Origin: a virus
Taxonomy: Duplodnaviria; Caudoviricetes
IMG/VR virus record: IMGVR_UViG_3300033802_000250
Length of the DNA: 64,000 bases
Reading direction: 5' to 3' (one strand)
A program made the position numbers and the translations under genes. This document shows, in pieces, positions 148 through 11,971 of this stretch (position 1 is the first letter of the stretch; every line of letters starts with the position of its first letter). Below the pieces are notes generated by a model, which was not told the DNA's origin, did no database searches, and saw only the letters and a list, made by a program, of their open reading frames with translations.

Positions 148-3100
148 TTACTGAGCGGCGCGTACACGCTCAACGTGGATGCGGCAAAGCTCATAGTGTG
201 CTACTTGCAGAATGAACGCCTGCATTTCTGCCGGAACATTCGCGCCATTGACAAGCGCGAACTGCTTGCCTTCCACCGCGCGGACATCGAAATCTTTCGA
301 TTCGCCGCGTTTGTTGATGAGCGTCACTTTCGCGCACACATTACCGACAGCGACACTGTCAGTTTGCTCTACCGTCACGCCGACGATTCCATACTTGGTC
401 GGATTCGTCTTGACGCTCCAGTAGTCGGCATTCCGATTCAGGCGATTCATGATCTCGACTTTGAACTTCGGAATGCCGAGCGACTCGATGTCGATCATTT
501 CCTCTTTCGCCTGCTTGCGCGACGCTTGATGCACTTCGTCATAGGATATATACTCGTCTGCATTGATGCGCTCGCGTTTGCGTTGCGGTTTCTCCTCTGC
601 CTCATCCAGCGTGCGGATGAACTGGCAATCCAGCGCGTAGAACGACGCTTCCTTCGGCGCTTGATTCGGGCGTCTCACAACCGCGTCCAGCTTGTCCACA
701 TTCACGACCTTCAGTTCGCACGGCAGATACGGAGCCAGCAAGGCTTTGTGCTGACGTGCGACCGAACCCATGCGGTGCTTACCGATGTACACCGCCGCGC
801 GGATTTCATCACCGTCATGCTGTTTGCGCACCGTGATGATACCATCGTTTGCCTTGAGGGCGGCCAGAACTTCCTTCGCGCTGAATCCATTCGCTTTGAA
901 ACCGTAGAAGTCGAACGGGATGTGCTTGTCTTCCGGGATCAGCCGGTCGATCTTGTTCAGCGTCGAGATAGAGCGGGACTTCACTTTCACATACAGATTG
1001 CCGTTCTTCTTGAACGTTTCGTACGTCCCGTTCGGCACCTTGCAACGCACCACATAACCTTCACCGACGGACTTGCATTGATGGAACTTCAGCTTCTCCG
1101 GCACATTGTCGATGTGACCATCGTAGTGCGCCAGACGCAACTTCGTTTTGTTGTCGCTGGAATGGCTCGCATTCAGGAGCAGACCTTCGTAGCAGACAAC
1201 CCACGGGAACGAAATCGCCTTGCCTTTCGAGCCGTTGTCATGGTACGCATGTTGGTATGCGGCGGCGGCGATGGACGCGATATCCGAATCAATCGAGAGA
1301 ACAGCACGCTGATACTTATCCACAATATGGTTGATATACTCGCGTTGCTGGTCTTCATCGAGATCCAGTTCGTTCATCCGCTCAAAGTCCTTGCGGTACA
1401 TCCGCTCCAGCGTAGCGACAATCGGCTTGATACGCTCGACTTCTTCGTAATCAGCGGCAGACGCGAACTCGAAGCTGAAATCACGAGTCGTGATGCTGGA
1501 CTCCACGGACTTGTAATACTTTTGTTCGAGGTACTTCTCGATGGCCGCGTGCAGTTTGCCGATTCGGCTGTACGACTGGAACGGTTTCGCGTCTTCGTTG
1601 CCTGCCTTGTAGGCTTTTTCGCTCCACGGATGCCACGACGGCGAGACGGTAATCTTGACGACATCCGGCACCGGCGGGAAGTAACCGGTTTTTGCGTAAT
1701 CAATCGCCCAACCCTGCATAAAGCGGAGAATTTTGACGATTACGTCGATGTCATCAGCGGTGAGTTTGCCCACGATGTCGCGGATATGATCGAGATGCAA
1801 TTGCTCCGCGAGATCCTTCCACGACGTACTCATATCAGTGACTTGACCGATGGTCGGTGCATCACTGATGATCGTTGCATAGTCGAACTCATAAATCGAC
1901 TCATCGCAGACTTTCTTCTTCTCGCCGTCGCCGCCTTTATCGTACAGCATCGGGAGGTTGGTGTACACCGCTTTGACGATGGTTTCATCATCGACAATGG
2001 CGATTCTGTCACCATCCGTATCTGCACCACCCATGCGCGGAAGCGTATCGTCGTAAGGATTGAACACCAACACGTCTTTGAACAGCCCGTGGAACTGTTC
2101 AACGTTGACGGTGTTAATCACAACAGCCTCACTCCGATGAATCAGCGGCGAGCGAAAACCAGCGTAGGTCTTCTCCAGACCGTTGAAGTAGTATTCGCCG
2201 GGGCCGAGCAACGATTTCTTGCCGAACATGCACAGCGGATCGGTGATGATGAACGGATTCGCGCCGGGCACCGCAATGCGGCCAGTACCCATGTCGCGGA
2301 TATACCGCTCTCTCATTTCACGAAGCGACCGCTGGATATACGGATCACGAATCAGATCCGGGTTCTCGTTCAGCATTTCGAGAATCTTCTGGATGCGGCC
2401 ACCGGCCTTCGTCATATTGTCTTCGTAGTCATCCGCATCGCAGGTGGTATCAAGGCACCCGAGGAATGCCTTCGCATGATCGGCGTCTACGAAGATCGTA
2501 TCGCGCACTTCGTCGATGCGTGCTTTTGCGTAGTCAATCGGGTTGGCGATCTTCGGATTGAGCGCCTGCCAATACTGATAACCCATGTAGATGCGACCAT
2601 TGGTGCGCGGCTTGCTCCAGAGGACAATCTCGATCTTCACACGGTTGTCTTCCACGAGATTACCGTACTGATCGTACGCATTCACTTCGTTCGTCGTGAA
2701 CTTCTGGTCGAAGTTTGCCTTCCACATCGAATCTGTGAACAGGACATCGGCGTCGAAGTCGTACACATGCTCATCTTCGCCCCAAAACTTCATGACCTTG
2801 CCGGAGCGGCGCACCGTCTCACCGTTGCAATCCTGCCGATACTCCGGCAGATTGTGCGGGAACACCACGAGGCCGCCTTTGGCGAATCCGAAGCGGATGA
2901 GCCAGAATTGCGGGATCTTCTCCCACAGCTTCGCGAACTTTACATTGACCGCAACCAGCACGCGAGGATCGGAATTGACCGCTAATTGCTCCAGCAGATA
3001 GTCGCGCTCTGCGTTGCTGATGAGGTAAAGCTCATGTGCCCATTTCACGGCTCGTGCGGGCAAGACCGTACCTTGCCCATCGAGAGGGTTGTAATCCTTC

Positions 3101-3765
3101 TCGAAGTCTTTGACGAAGACCAACTCCTGCGTATCCGGGTCATACATTTCCACGTCATGCTTCCGGGTGATGATGTAGTCTGGCAACACATCGAACGTGA
3201 TCGGCTCGTCCATCTCAATCGACGACGACTCGATCAGACCGAAGCGGGACTCCATCTTGGAGATGACTTCGTACTCCTCGAACTGCGCACCATACGAGCA
3301 ACGGTAACGAATCTCATGCGGATTGCCGCTGGTGAACAGCGCCTTGCCGGTGCGCGATTTGGCCGCCGAACGGGATACGCGGCGGAACAGCGTCTTTGTG
3401 CCGTCCGGGTGAATCATATAGAACCCGTGGCGAAGTGCCTTCTTGATCTTCATCTTGGATTTGCACTTCTTGAAGTCCACGACAACGAAGTTGCGAGCCG
3501 AGCGCACTTTCTCCACCTCAAGCTCGACCAGACCATTCTCGTCGCGGCGCAAACGACCGAATTCGTCGCGGGCCAAACGTACCTTGTCCTCCCACATGTC
3601 TTTGCATTCCTTGCGGAACACGCGGCACTCCGACACCAACACCTTGCACGAACGCTTCTCGTTGTTGTCGAAGTCGCGCTCATGGAAGACCAGTTCATTG
3701 CCGACCCACACCATTTCACGGTTGTACACCAGACCAACAAGGTATTGCTCACGTTTCTTTGCCAT
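148..3765 (-). CDS. YonO-like single-subunit two-barrel RNA polymerase (cellular RdRP-related family), 1205 aa
   Basis: Catalytic DxDGD in MGGADTDGDR, upstream RSP motif (FRSPLIHRSE) and AIDYAKTG matching RdRP/YonO conserved blocks; RBS GAAAGGA before ATG. Confidence 0.88.
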   Translation of the reverse strand: MAKKREQYLVGLVYNREMVWVGNELVFHERDFDNNEKRSCKVLVSECRVFRKECKDMWEDKVRLARDEFGRLRRDENGLVELEVEKVRSARNFVVVDFKKCKSKMKIKKALRHGFYMIHPDGTKTLFRRVSRSAAKSRTGKALFTSGNPHEIRYRCSYGAQFEEYEVISKMESRFGLIESSSIEMDEPITFDVLPDYIITRKHDVEMYDPDTQELVFVKDFEKDYNPLDGQGTVLPARAVKWAHELYLISNAERDYLLEQLAVNSDPRVLVAVNVKFAKLWEKIPQFWLIRFGFAKGGLVVFPHNLPEYRQDCNGETVRRSGKVMKFWGEDEHVYDFDADVLFTDSMWKANFDQKFTTNEVNAYDQYGNLVEDNRVKIEIVLWSKPRTNGRIYMGYQYWQALNPKIANPIDYAKARIDEVRDTIFVDADHAKAFLGCLDTTCDADDYEDNMTKAGGRIQKILEMLNENPDLIRDPYIQRSLREMRERYIRDMGTGRIAVPGANPFIITDPLCMFGKKSLLGPGEYYFNGLEKTYAGFRSPLIHRSEAVVINTVNVEQFHGLFKDVLVFNPYDDTLPRMGGADTDGDRIAIVDDETIVKAVYTNLPMLYDKGGDGEKKKVCDESIYEFDYATIISDAPTIGQVTDMSTSWKDLAEQLHLDHIRDIVGKLTADDIDVIVKILRFMQGWAIDYAKTGYFPPVPDVVKITVSPSWHPWSEKAYKAGNEDAKPFQSYSRIGKLHAAIEKYLEQKYYKSVESSITTRDFSFEFASAADYEEVERIKPIVATLERMYRKDFERMNELDLDEDQQREYINHIVDKYQRAVLSIDSDIASIAAAAYQHAYHDNGSKGKAISFPWVVCYEGLLLNASHSSDNKTKLRLAHYDGHIDNVPEKLKFHQCKSVGEGYVVRCKVPNGTYETFKKNGNLYVKVKSRSISTLNKIDRLIPEDKHIPFDFYGFKANGFSAKEVLAALKANDGIITVRKQHDGDEIRAAVYIGKHRMGSVARQHKALLAPYLPCELKVVNVDKLDAVVRRPNQAPKEASFYALDCQFIRTLDEAEEKPQRKRERINADEYISYDEVHQASRKQAKEEMIDIESLGIPKFKVEIMNRLNRNADYWSVKTNPTKYGIVGVTVEQTDSVAVGNVCAKVTLINKRGESKDFDVRAVEGKQFALVNGANVPAEMQAFILQVAHYELCRIHVERVRAAQ

Positions 3766-4148: not shown

Positions 4149-4187
4149 AAAAAGCGACGAGAGATCACATCACAACCTCTCATCGCT
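4149..4187 (-). terminator. Intrinsic terminator closing RNA B, upstream of the RNAP gene pair
   Basis: 15-bp stem with G-U pairs AGCGATGAGAGGTTG/TGATCTCTCGTCGCT followed by a U-run. Confidence 0.7.
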
Positions 4188-4307
4188 CCTCCATCACCCG
4201 TATGTCGCCAACACTTATCAGAACCTCTCCGGTTCCTTCCCTCAACAACACCCATCGCGCCTTGTCGGGACACCGACAAGCGCGGTTCTTCGCGTTGTTG
4301 TACAGCC

Positions 4308-4340
4308 GGTACAACGTACCACAATTGGTACAACGTACCA
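4308..4340. repeat. Tandem 14-bp direct repeat GGTACAACGTACCA x2; each copy is a small hairpin
   Basis: Copies at 4308-4321 and 4327-4340, partial third copy TACAACG 4341-4347. Confidence 0.9.
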
Positions 4341-4722
4341 TACAACGAGTGCGAGCGGTACGCCGAGGGGTGCGGAACCGAGCGAGAGAGCGACAAAAGC
4401 GACGATTTGACTCCCAATCGCGCAACATCGCTAGGGAGCAACGTCGCATTGTACGCAAAATGCAACGATGCAAGCGCAAAAAGCACAAGTTTGTTGTCGA
4501 TTCGTTGCAAATGCAACACCTCCATATCCGCGCCCGTCTGCGCCGTCGTCGCAGGTACAATGACGACGATGCTGTTAGACGCCGTAGTGTCGTATGGAAT
4601 CGCCGACAGGCGGGATATGTGGGGCCGCCTCGCTCCGCTCGGCGGCGCATCCACACCTGCAACGTCACTACAACAAACATGCAGAATCATCTGCATCGTC
4701 ACCAAGCTCGCTACCACCCCGC

Positions 4723-5502
4723 TCACGCCTCCACCTTGTCGCCGTTGTACGCAATCCATGCGTCCCGGATCTCCAGTCCGCTCGGCTTGCGATCATATTC
4801 GGCGACAAAGCTGGCGGTGAACTGCTTCAACCATTCAGGATCAACAGTTCCCCGGCGGCGGTTCGATGCAGATGCATTTTCCATGCGTTGCTCACCAACC
4901 ACCTCTTGGTTCGCAAGCTTGGCTTTGCGTTGCAGAATCTTAATCGGCGCGGGCATTGCCTTGATGCGACCGAATGCCTTCACGATGCGTGCAATGTCAC
5001 CATGCACACCGTTGGTGTACTTCTTGAAGATCGTGATCAGCGTTGCGTACGATACAATGCGGTCGCCGCGCACCGACGAATACATATGCAGACAGAAGTC
5101 TTTCTTCGACCAGCCGACAATGACTGTATCCGTCATCGTCCGACCGTTGACGCGATAGACAACCTTGATGTTGTCTGCGGACACGAACTCGATGAGTTTC
5201 TTCGGCTTCGATTCCGATTTCGTTCCACCGTCCTCGGCGACGACAGCGTCGTCACCTGCGGGCGGTGCGTCACTGTCGGACGGCACAAAGAACGCATCCG
5301 CACCGTCAGCATTGGCATCGTTGTTGTTGTGGGGATTGCGCTCGCTCGCCTCCGGCTCGCTCGCGCTCGCTTGCAGATCACTCATGCTCATCTGTTGCTT
5401 CTTCATCTCAATCGCCTCCATCAGTTTTTGTTTGCTCATTTTGGAGTAGCCGATAACCCCGAGTTCCTTTGCGACCTGTTTCAGTTCTTGTACGGTTGCC
5501 AT
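4723..5502 (-). CDS. Rho-N-terminal (HEH) domain protein, 259 aa
   Basis: N-terminus TVQELKQVAKELGVIGYSKMSKQKLMEAI fits the Rho_N pattern; RBS GAAAGGATG before ATG 5502; low-complexity linker then unknown domain. Confidence 0.8.
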   Translation of the reverse strand: MATVQELKQVAKELGVIGYSKMSKQKLMEAIEMKKQQMSMSDLQASASEPEASERNPHNNNDANADGADAFFVPSDSDAPPAGDDAVVAEDGGTKSESKPKKLIEFVSADNIKVVYRVNGRTMTDTVIVGWSKKDFCLHMYSSVRGDRIVSYATLITIFKKYTNGVHGDIARIVKAFGRIKAMPAPIKILQRKAKLANQEVVGEQRMENASASNRRRGTVDPEWLKQFTASFVAEYDRKPSGLEIRDAWIAYNGDKVEA

Positions 5503-5529
5503 TGTACAATCATCCTTTCTGAAATTTGA

Positions 5530-6340
5530 TTTTGTGTGTTGAAGTCCCATCTAAATAGTGGGATGCGACCGGCCCCGGCTCCAAAGACTCGGCCCCGTTT
5601 TGAACCCCTGTTTTGCGCGGCGCGGAGGACACGCACCGGAGGGATCACCCGGCGTGATGCCAGCCATGTGCGACGGACGACTGAGACTCTTGTTCGTTGG
5701 TGTGACGCACAATGTTCGCTGTACCTCCCGTATTCAGAGTTAGCTTGGAGGTCTCATGGATTGCGACCAGCCTACGCTGATCCCATGATTCCCCCGTCGC
5801 CAATGCGAGTTAGTGAGAGGACAGGAACACAGTGGGTGCGGCGACTTATGCTACGTTATCCTGCCGCGCGAGTCTCACACACGGCAGGTGGTAGGCCCAA
5901 CCGACGTGACGACTCAACTACCACTGTGTAAGCGATGTTCAAGCAATGGCAGTACGAACTGGCTACACAGCGGTAGTCAGTCCATGCGATTGTTGCCATG
6001 TTGTCAACATCCTTTCTGTCACCAACTCGCACGAACCGATTCCCTCATAGCGCAATCTATGAGTGGGGTGGTTCATCCCCAGTGTACGGCCCCCAACTCC
6101 ACCGTACACAAACCCGAGTTAGGAGTAGGTCGCGTGGAGCATAATGCTCGACGGACGGCTTTCCGTTCTTCGCCATTTCCGCCTTCCGCCCGGGCTATTT
6201 ATGCGTTTCGACTCCGCTGACCGAACCCTCATGGTCTCCCTATTACTCGTGACAATGCACTAGATACGGGGAAACAGAGTCCGATCTCCGGCGGGCGTAT
6301 GCCCGATTTGTTTCGGCATCACCTCCTTTCAGGTGATGTC
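5530..6340 (-). ncRNA. Putative large structured RNA A (about 800 nt)
   Basis: Stems: 5805-5816/6019-6030 (12 bp, 1 G-U), 5917-5930/5964-5977 (14 bp, 1 G-U), 5860-5866/5882-5888, 5670-5676/5794-5800, 6044-6063, 6082-6109; minus-strand G-U bias; no credible long ORF. Confidence 0.65.
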
Positions 6341-6343
6341 GTG

Positions 6344-6682
6344 CTACATTGCCTTCAGTTGCTCAATCTTGATGGCGAGCATAACTTCAAGCTTCACCTG
6401 ATCAGCACCATCGCTGTTGAATTTGCCATTCACCTCAAAGAATGCAACTTCACTCTCGGCCTGCGGAATGACAAACTTCAGGATGCGTTCTACCTGCTGT
6501 TCCGGGAGCCCGAACTCCTCCATCATGATGAGACGGCATTCGGCAATGAAGCTTTCACAGATAGCGCGATAGCTTTGTGTGTCAACCCTGATGCCTTCTT
6601 GCACGACCTGTTTCGCCAAACGATGTGACAGCATAGTCGATATGCCAATCTCAAACATGCGTTTGCGAGCGTGCGAAAGCAC
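6344..6682 (-). CDS. Hypothetical protein (about 112 aa)
   Basis: RBS GAAAGGAGGTG before GTG 6682. Confidence 0.75.
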   Translation of the reverse strand: MLSHARKRMFEIGISTMLSHRLAKQVVQEGIRVDTQSYRAICESFIAECRLIMMEEFGLPEQQVERILKFVIPQAESEVAFFEVNGKFNSDGADQVKLEVMLAIKIEQLKAM

Positions 6683-6754
6683 CTGTATCACCTCCTTTCG
6701 CGGCCCGTGGGATTAGCCGCATAATTTCAACCCCGGATTCACCTCCTTCCGGGT

Positions 6755-6782
6755 AAAGAAAAGGAGGAGCCGAAGCCCCTCC
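6755..6782 (-). terminator. Intrinsic terminator
   Basis: GGAGGGGC-TTCG-GCTCCTCC followed by TTTTCTTT. Confidence 0.85.
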
Positions 6783-11764: not shown

Positions 11765-11971
11765 ATGGAAAAGCCGCTTGAAAACATTTTCCGATACCAT
11801 CCGCCGAAGGACGATCAGCCGAAACGCTACGAGACGATCCGTTCGCTCGGGCACGGCTTCGCGGAGGCGATTGAGAATCTCTGCCCGCCGAGCGCCGAGC
11901 GTGACGAGGCGATCAAGAAAATCCGGGAAGCTGTGATGTGGGCAAACGCATCTATCGCCTGCAACGAATGA
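11765..11971 (+). CDS. Acb2/Tad1-like helical-hairpin protein (candidate nucleotide-signal sponge)
   Basis: 68 aa, FRYHPP...CPPSAERDEAIKKIREAVMWANASIA resembles the Tad1-type C-terminal hairpin (SRE..A...EEA.MW.N). Confidence 0.65.
   Translation: MEKPLENIFRYHPPKDDQPKRYETIRSLGHGFAEAIENLCPPSAERDEAIKKIREAVMWANASIACNE

Follow-up and report, generated by a model that had tools for sequence, protein, structure and literature searches.

The 64,000-nt phage sequence analysed here (the window, from IMG/VR record IMGVR_UViG_3300033802_000250) contains, as judged from comparison with related phages, a large structured RNA that we term RNA A. Encoded on the minus strand at 5504–6343, RNA A appears to be a real, conserved RNA of a family that is not in Rfam, in which competing helices are also conserved, and it is predicted to lie in the terminal repeat of a jumbo phage. 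The region is an 840-nt gap inside a leftward operon, free of open reading frames (ORFs) and extending from the stop codon of a gene of 112/115 amino acids to the ribosome-binding site (RBS) of a gp101-like gene; it can be aligned over its full length in five phage lineages and has a covarying consensus structure. An earlier note on this DNA, made from its letters, had described an ornate structured RNA of about 800 nt with competing helices at this place, and covariation across the five lineages agrees with that description, with the minus strand as the RNA sense.

Relatives of the window were reached through the proteins encoded upstream and downstream of RNA A, on contigs from unrelated metagenome samples. 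Two of these contigs, L003 and L004, carry the same phage as the window. In the others the equivalent gap is 98.7% identical to that of the window in L016, 90% identical in L001 and 72% identical in L002 and L005, which represent one lineage, and it is more distant (nhmmer E 3.7e-47) in L023, a locus found through a polymerase that is 64% identical. L016 is the only true relative among the 11 matches of a metagenome DNA-pattern scan, the other ten being chance matches. The end-to-end alignment of the five lineages shows long invariant blocks separated by variable stretches, with many insertions and deletions of 1–2 nt. No conserved ORF is found in 5504–6343 under genetic code 11, or with TAG read as Gln or TGA as Trp, and a six-frame comparison of the lineages gives short matches in all frames, with the frame changing between lineages. 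What is conserved at 5504–6343 is the nucleotide sequence, not a protein. Its conservation also appears to exceed that of its neighbours: between the window and L002/L005 the RNA has 72% nucleotide identity, the upstream protein has 72% amino acid identity, and the gp101 homologue of L005 has 58% amino acid identity by BLASTP (P0005), or 72% in a MAFFT alignment.

RNAalifold, applied to the five lineages, returns 215 pairs, 53 of them with compensatory double changes. The consensus structure to which our helix numbers refer has 248 pairs in 39 helices, with 91.4% of cells paired and 62 pairs altered on both sides. The number of doubly changed pairs falls to 26.5 ± 3.3 when columns are shuffled, with none of 500 shuffles reaching the observed value, and to 5–11 in controls in which the 3′ partners were slid by 1–3 columns. 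Coming from five sequences, these counts are a strong indication and not a formal probability. The structure includes G-U and U-G pairs that are invariant when read in the minus sense (for example at alignment columns 135:189, 343:354, 410:474 and 593:603). Since these would become A-C on the opposite strand, we conclude that the sense of the RNA is that of the surrounding genes. Single-sequence folding does not discriminate between the strands, the z-scores being −3.2 and −3.4.

The conserved parts of RNA A, all given here in minus-strand sense, can be followed from the 5′ end, which has the higher coordinates. A three-tier stem at 6214–6291 (helices 5–7) comprises 26 pairs, 11 of which are changed on both sides, and is 88–100% paired. 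It coincides with one of two stem regions, 6220–6285 and 5670–5800, pointed out in the earlier note; the second corresponds to helices 27–31, and both sets of helices are rich in compensatory changes. Next comes the GAGCAUUAUGCUC hairpin (6137–6149, helix 12), which is replaced in L023 by a longer hairpin with a compensated base, GGUC...GACC. The word CATTATGC within this hairpin, at 6139, was considered as a promoter and rejected for that site, where it falls in the stem and loop of a hairpin that covaries.

A cluster of four hairpins follows at 6044–6130 (helices 13–16), again 88–100% paired and with compensatory changes. Its members are the CCUAAC-loop hairpin (6112–6130), the GUGUACGG hairpin (6082–6109), the UGGGG hairpin (6064–6081) and the CUCAUAG hairpin (6044–6063), and a covariance model built on them, R1, recovers the cluster in L016 and L023. 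The hairpin at 6082–6109, which had been predicted from the window, is helix 14 of the consensus, with nine base pairs that are 100% paired and compensatory changes in three of them. Its loop had in addition been proposed to pair with 6116–6125. That pairing is a perfect 10 bp in the window and is not conserved as such; what the lineages do conserve is a 4-bp loop–loop (kissing) contact in which the CCUAAC-hairpin loop pairs with the first part of the 6082–6109 loop. This contact covaries: the window and L001 have CUCC/GGAG, L002/L005 have UCCC/GGGA, and L023 has AGCC/GGUU.

Further towards the 3′ end, and beyond the central strands considered below, the CCUGCCG hairpin at 5860–5888 (helix 25) presents an invariant loop, GUGUGAGACUCG, on a stem of 12 pairs that is 100% paired and compensated at two positions; L007, a more distant relative, has by eye a similar loop on a stem of different sequence. 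A long helix at 5707–5835 (S3:S4, helices 27–28, in which S3 is 5827–5835) is built around an inner hairpin at 5743–5797 (helix 31) that is 100% paired with five of seven pairs compensated. The 3′ domain (5541–5646, helices 36–39) consists of a hairpin at 5603–5646 with a conserved loop, GUGAUCCCU, and of the module GGGG..AGUCUU-N20-CACUAUU at 5541–5596. The GUGAUCCCU loop contains the palindrome GAUC, and its complement GGGAUCA occurs within the inner-hairpin stem (5757–5763, helices 30–31); the loop could make a further tertiary or intermolecular contact.

The centre of RNA A is distinguished by strands that have more than one conserved partner. Segment X (6012–6030) is shared by two competing helices, pairing either with partner A (5982–5992) or with partner B (5805–5825). 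The X:A pairing forms the inner part of helix 17, and partner A tracks X in every lineage. The X:B pairing contains the 12-bp helix 5805–5816/6019–6030 recognised earlier, for which we calculate −22.5 kcal/mol in the window. Complementarity is kept in the L002/L005 lineage despite wholly different strands (−23.2 and −18.6 kcal/mol), and it is weaker in L023 (−10.3 kcal/mol) and L001 (−7.8 kcal/mol). When strands are combined across lineages, window with L002 lineage, the values are only −9.7 to −12.1 kcal/mol, compared with −22.5 and −23.2 kcal/mol within lineages.

A second choice involves the 14-bp helix S1:S2 (5917–5930/5964–5977), which with its variable loop occupies 5916–5978 (helices 19–20). 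Also first noticed in the window, it is present in all five lineages at −25 to −27 kcal/mol; in four of them it varies only by changes of G-U to A-U or of C-G to U-G, and it is more irregular in L023. The 5917–5930 strand had been suggested to have two alternative partners. The pairing with 5827–5835, S2:S3, is kept in every lineage and survives a change of G-C to A-U in L023, whereas that with 5888–5894 is confined to the window and L001 lineages. Since X:A excludes X:B and S1:S2 excludes S2:S3, the helices fall into two sets. In the first fold X:A occurs with S1:S2 and S3:S4; in the second the long-range X:B helix encloses S2:S3. The pattern of conservation thus suggests that the centre of RNA A has two coherent, mutually exclusive folds, both of which are maintained. 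Part of this conservation could be mimicked by an internal duplication through which S1 stays similar to S3 and A to B.

The suspicion that this RNA belongs to no recognisable family is borne out by a cmscan search of the whole window against Rfam 15 (4,227 families), in which there are no matches at the gathering score. Between 5300 and 6600 the only hits at E ≤ 10 are COG3943 (15 bits, where 71.8 are needed) and Six3os1, both junk, and the loci of L001, L007 and L019 likewise give no Rfam match. Rfam 15, which we take to include GOLLD (RF01998) and ROOL (RF03087), gives no covariance-model match between RNA A and either of these RNAs, nor with a riboswitch, intron, RNase P, tmRNA, 6S, OLE, HEARO or raiA.

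Comparison with known large RNAs nevertheless places RNA A in recognisable company. GOLLD, like RNA A, is about 800 nt long with many helices, is carried by Bacillota phages and has no known function. It is usually found beside tRNA genes, whereas RNA A occupies what is probably an early operon of a terminal repeat, and ARAGORN detects no tRNA or tmRNA in the 64-kb window. ROOL is also a large ornate RNA, often found in Bacillota phage or prophage DNA, but at ~580 nt it is shorter than RNA A (~800 nt), and the helices of the two are unrelated. Another structured phage RNA, the pRNA of phi29, is encoded beside the genome end, is made early and acts as a multimer on a protein machine; it is, however, only ~174 nt long and comes from small phages whose DNA is protein-primed, no similarity to it was detected, and a packaging role for RNA A would be speculation. 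In general character RNA A most resembles GOLLD, ROOL and OLE, a kind of RNA for which homo-oligomeric, RNA-only assembly has been described (PMC12286853); GOLLD forms such assemblies (PMC12286853) and ROOL forms nanocages (PMC12286853, PMC12515178). RNA A has the features of this kind, being longer than 500 nt with no coding potential and having a multi-domain fold that is kept by compensatory change. The words 'jumbo', '0305' and 'terminal repeat' do not occur in a 2026 preprint on non-coding sequence space.

RNA A opens with a Shine-Dalgarno (SD)-like element, GAAAGGAGGUGAU, at 6318–6330, which is invariant in the window, L001, L002/L005, L016 and L007; at the equivalent place Bacillus phage 0305phi8-36, L025 and L026 have GAGAGGAGGG or GAAAGGAGGG, and the 5′ word of the 0305phi8-36 gap is GAGAGGAGG. 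In the genes of these phages GAAAGGAGGUGA is an ordinary RBS, followed by a start codon 8–9 nt after GGAGG, and GAAAGGAGGUGAU itself serves neighbouring genes as an RBS with this spacing. At the head of RNA A the sole AUG is only 2 nt after GGAGG, and no start codon stands at a working distance. A small ORF behind the SD word was considered and rejected, because insertions and deletions alter its frame and length between lineages, giving 19 codons in the window, three in L007 and ~40 in L002. The word GAAAGGAGGTGA recurs in this phage group as an unusually long RBS consensus, for example at 6699 and 6330 (minus strand) of the window and at many gene starts in related loci; 12–13 nt of it are complementary to what we take to be the usual 3′ end of 16S rRNA.

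Strong SD complementarity with no usable start codon is the distinguishing mark of the STAB-SD of the Bacillus thuringiensis cry3A mRNA, a perfect, non-initiating SD to which the 30S subunit binds, thereby blocking RNase J1 (PMC4113751). The element in RNA A shares with it a perfect SD, lacking a translation start, at the head of the RNA, and by analogy may be a STAB-SD-like stabiliser. The likeness would account for the first 13 nt of RNA A only, and is weakened by the absence of the word from L023.

RNA A is contained in a leftward gene block that runs from ~9642 down to 148. Its upstream neighbour is the 112/115-amino-acid gene (6344–6691, minus strand), which has no assigned function and is the first gene of its transcription unit, following a terminator at 6782–6763. 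The downstream neighbour (4723–5502, minus strand) encodes a gp101-like protein of 259 residues that is 35% identical to ORF101 of 0305phi8-36 (E 5e-30). Its N-terminus matches Pfam Rho_N (Rho_N/HeH), and a disordered, acidic linker joins this head to a conserved α/β domain at the C-terminus, which has the motifs NGVHGDxARIVKA and GTVDPEWL. The C-terminal domain, although confidently modelled, has no clear match in the PDB, Foldseek returning nothing at E ≤ 0.001; with VIA-align the best match is an SsgA-like protein (Z 5.5), and the HeH part matches the Rho N-terminal domain (Z 4.8). These comparisons are uninformative for or against RNA binding. PHROGs and Pfam searches of the neighbouring genes assign no function beyond Rho_N and RdRP.

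Beyond the gp101-like gene are a second non-coding stretch, a gene of 65 amino acids and then, ~1.7 kb downstream of RNA A, the gene for a 1205-residue single-subunit RNA polymerase of the YonO/RdRP family (148–3765, minus strand; PF05183), a marker common to all relatives. Terminator-like hairpins on the minus strand, at 6782–6763 and 4173–4154, flank a unit made up of the small gene, RNA A and the gp101-like gene, and no terminator-like or sigma-70-like site was found directly beside RNA A. Splicing across RNA A is unlikely, since each of the flanking genes is intact, with its own stop codon, RBS and start codon. The second non-coding stretch, at 4149–4715, contains the 4173–4154 hairpin and corresponds by synteny to the place in 0305phi8-36, between ORF101 and ORF100, where the terminal repeat has its inner boundary. 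Elsewhere in the window, in a rightward block beside the early region, a 68-amino-acid gene at ~11765–11971 (plus strand; transferred from L003:2712–2918) has a Pfam match to the Acb2/Tad1-hairpin family of anti-CBASS/Thoeris sponges. A few genes downstream of the polymerase, four loci from three phage lineages carry a gene with an RNase H Pfam match and a faint NADAR-DarT1 match (L001:15306–16226, L003:15334–16257, L023:13015–13956 and L024:14465–15742).

The phage to which the window belongs (~205 kb) appears from its genes to be a relative of 0305phi8-36. The window polymerase is 42.8% identical to ORF099 of that phage over 99% of its length, and its ~50 relatives include many on contigs of ~205–215 kb. 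Upstream of ORF099 in 0305phi8-36 (NC_009760), ORF102 is separated by a 735-nt gap from ORF101, which is followed by the inner boundary of the 6,479-bp terminal repeat and then by ORF100, so that the gap between ORF102R and ORF101R is inside the annotated right terminal repeat. By synteny, RNA A would likewise be inside a terminal repeat and be present in two copies in each packaged genome. Hardies et al. have proposed that this genome end enters the cell first (PMC2147016), and the gene block of RNA A is transcribed inward from it. The non-coding gaps of 0305phi8-36 have been discussed as promoter sites, with no RNA described (PMC2147016).

Every relative that was fetched has a gap of ~470–1090 nt directly upstream of its gp101 homologue. 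The gp101 homologues flank the gap in 11 lineages, and the upstream gene differs among lineages. By sequence these gaps separate into types, type 1 being the five lineages that align with RNA A. A second type, seen in 0305phi8-36, L025 and L026, has 60–65% identity within the type and its own fold of 128 pairs, 33 of them compensated. The ORF102–ORF101 gap of 0305phi8-36 has the same place, the same neighbours and a similar size as RNA A, and shares with it a 5′ GA(G/A)AGGAGG word and a 3′ AGUCUK-N20-CACUAAU module; its middle, however, has no alignable similarity, and the type-1 models do not detect it. More generally, the word GA(A/G)AGGAGG(G/U) is shared across types at the 5′ end. The 3′ module GG..A(G/C)(U/C)C(U/C)(U/G)-N18-24-C(A/U)CUA(A/U)U, a pattern derived post hoc from these very sequences, turns up a single time in each lineage, always at the equivalent position, and has no other occurrence in 439 kb; it recurs in L023, L007, 0305phi8-36, L025 and L026. 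L007 acts as a bridge, in that the type-1 profile matches its 5′ end at E 0.12 and the type-2 profile its 3′ module at E 0.19; L024 and L027 have motifs in common by eye only. It is likely, from these shared ends, that the types are one fast-evolving family.

No match to RNA A is found by blastn among GenBank phages and PLSDB plasmids. IMG/VR returned 0305phi8-36 alone, whether the query was a flanking protein, the polymerase, a polymerase alignment or a DNA pattern. Model R1 gives nothing in L007, L019, L020, L024 or L025 even with filters off, and model R2, built on the type-1 3′ module, misses the corresponding modules of L007, L019, L025 and L026. R1 likewise has no match among 151 genomes sampled from the class to which the Paenibacillus host belongs, a weakly informative result as no positive-control genome exists. 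That host was identified in a GTDB genome scan with the polymerase alignment, in which a plasmid of Paenibacillus sp. EC2-1, also one of the ~50 polymerase relatives, is the sole match. This 'plasmid pla' (L020; NZ_CP186007.1, complete, 206.5 kb) encodes a 1204-residue YonO-like polymerase with 43% identity (L020:8001–11615) in a similar gene order, with its gap at L020:6734–7336, and looks like a 0305phi8-36-like jumbo phage that is maintained, or was assembled, as a plasmid. In L023 the gap is 1093 nt long and its first ~280 nt (L023:4273–4554) cannot be aligned to RNA A; one gene caller places three tiny ORFs there (in L022), and this segment might represent either an additional 5′ domain or a small gene.

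We consider it probable, at roughly 0.6, that RNA A represents a new family of large (~800 nt), multi-domain, stable and early non-coding phage RNAs that act through their fold, its structural core included. On this reading RNA A would be co-transcribed with both of its neighbours, and would be early if, as has been hypothesised for 0305phi8-36, that genome end enters first. It would then accumulate as a stable species, a 30S subunit bound at its 5′ SD word blocking 5′-to-3′ decay by RNase J1 as at a STAB-SD. Switching between the two conserved central folds would make it a switchable scaffold, and RNA A, while encoding nothing, would act by its tertiary fold, either binding a phage or host partner or assembling with itself. 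Because it is always adjacent to RNA A, the gp101-like HeH protein is the obvious candidate for such a partner.

Several points weigh against this interpretation. The type-1 fold is drawn from five lineages (the window, L016, L001, L002/L005 and L023), effectively four independent ones, which bears on all of the covariation counts. Homology between types depends on short motifs and on the two weak profile matches of L007 (E 0.12 and 0.19), and R1 and R2, built from type 1, miss types 2 and 3. The ends, processing and abundance of the transcript are all deduced from the DNA. L023 does not conserve the 5′ SD word, and two RNAalifold runs predict different pairing partners for that word; given this inconsistency, the word may be buried in the fold instead of being bound by ribosomes. 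Finally, G-T wobble pairs also form in single-stranded DNA, and the fixed place before one gene, with neither promoter nor terminator of its own, is equally what would be expected of a cis-acting leader.

Such a leader, which the earlier note had named as its alternative in riboswitch-like form, is the main rival explanation, and we regard it as unlikely although deserving of serious attention. RNA A would remain in the operon mRNA as an intercistronic element controlling the genes downstream, its fold switch setting the translation or stability of the gp101-like message, or readthrough of the 4173–4154 hairpin into the polymerase gene in a put-like or riboswitch-like manner. In all lineages RNA A keeps the same place immediately before the gp101 homologue, it was found to have no site of its own resembling a promoter or terminator, and mutually exclusive helices are conserved in RNA A as they are in riboswitches. 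The 3′ end of RNA A, which has no terminator, runs into the downstream RBS. However, the helices that touch that RBS (helices 1–2) are weak, having only 3–4 bp, and no conserved pairing that would hide the RBS was found. Rfam finds no riboswitch or leader, and RNA A, with 800 nt and ~35 helices, exceeds the size of generally known riboswitches, leaders and antitermination RNAs several-fold.

It is considerably less probable that the conserved entity is a DNA element, whether a replication origin, a recognition region for packaging or for the terminal repeat, or a set of single-stranded DNA hairpins near the genome end. By synteny the region is ~0.8–1.4 kb from the inner repeat boundary, the fold z-scores are alike on both strands, and wobble pairing is open to single-stranded DNA as well. 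Against this, the architecture is RNA-like, with ~250 nested pairs, long-range helices spanning up to ~220 nt, a kissing loop and alternative folds; the wobble pairs occur in the strand sense of the neighbouring genes; and the region opens with the phage RBS word in sense orientation. Origins and pac sites would in our view be expected to show repeats, AT-rich tracts and iterons, although no repeat search was made on the region. A decayed or unconventionally decoded protein-coding gene is the least credible alternative: stop-to-stop open stretches do reach 143 residues, as expected at 55% GC, and one of them gives a 97-residue match at 39% identity between the window and L002, but close relatives differ by frame-breaking indels of 1–2 nt, the matches switch among all six frames, neither TAG nor TGA reassignment opens a frame, and 39% amino acid identity at 72% nucleotide identity is below what would generally be expected of a selected frame.

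A broader proposal, which we advance only as a doubtful extension of the new-family reading, is that all 0305phi8-36-like jumbo phages carry one ancient giant terminal-repeat RNA, conserved at its ends and fast-evolving in its middle, that is among the first transcripts of infection. It might act as a bistable RNA machine, either with the gp101 HeH protein at genome ends or on the DNA as it enters, or by assembling from RNA alone to take over or shield some component of the host. If true, this would be a function with no described counterpart, and one that could be tested in a cultured phage.

To our knowledge only a handful of bacterial and phage RNAs exceed 500 nt and have complex conserved folds, namely GOLLD, ROOL, OLE and a few others, and none has a settled function. 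RNA A would extend this very short list. Its setting is fixed and interpretable, in what is probably an early operon of the terminal repeat and upstream of the phage's own YonO-type polymerase gene, and its conserved alternative folds would be a second useful property. The counterpart at the same place in 0305phi8-36, a cultured and genetically tractable phage of Bacillus thuringiensis, makes expression, structure and the effects of a knock-out accessible to experiment, and the EC2-1 'plasmid' of Paenibacillus may offer a second laboratory host.

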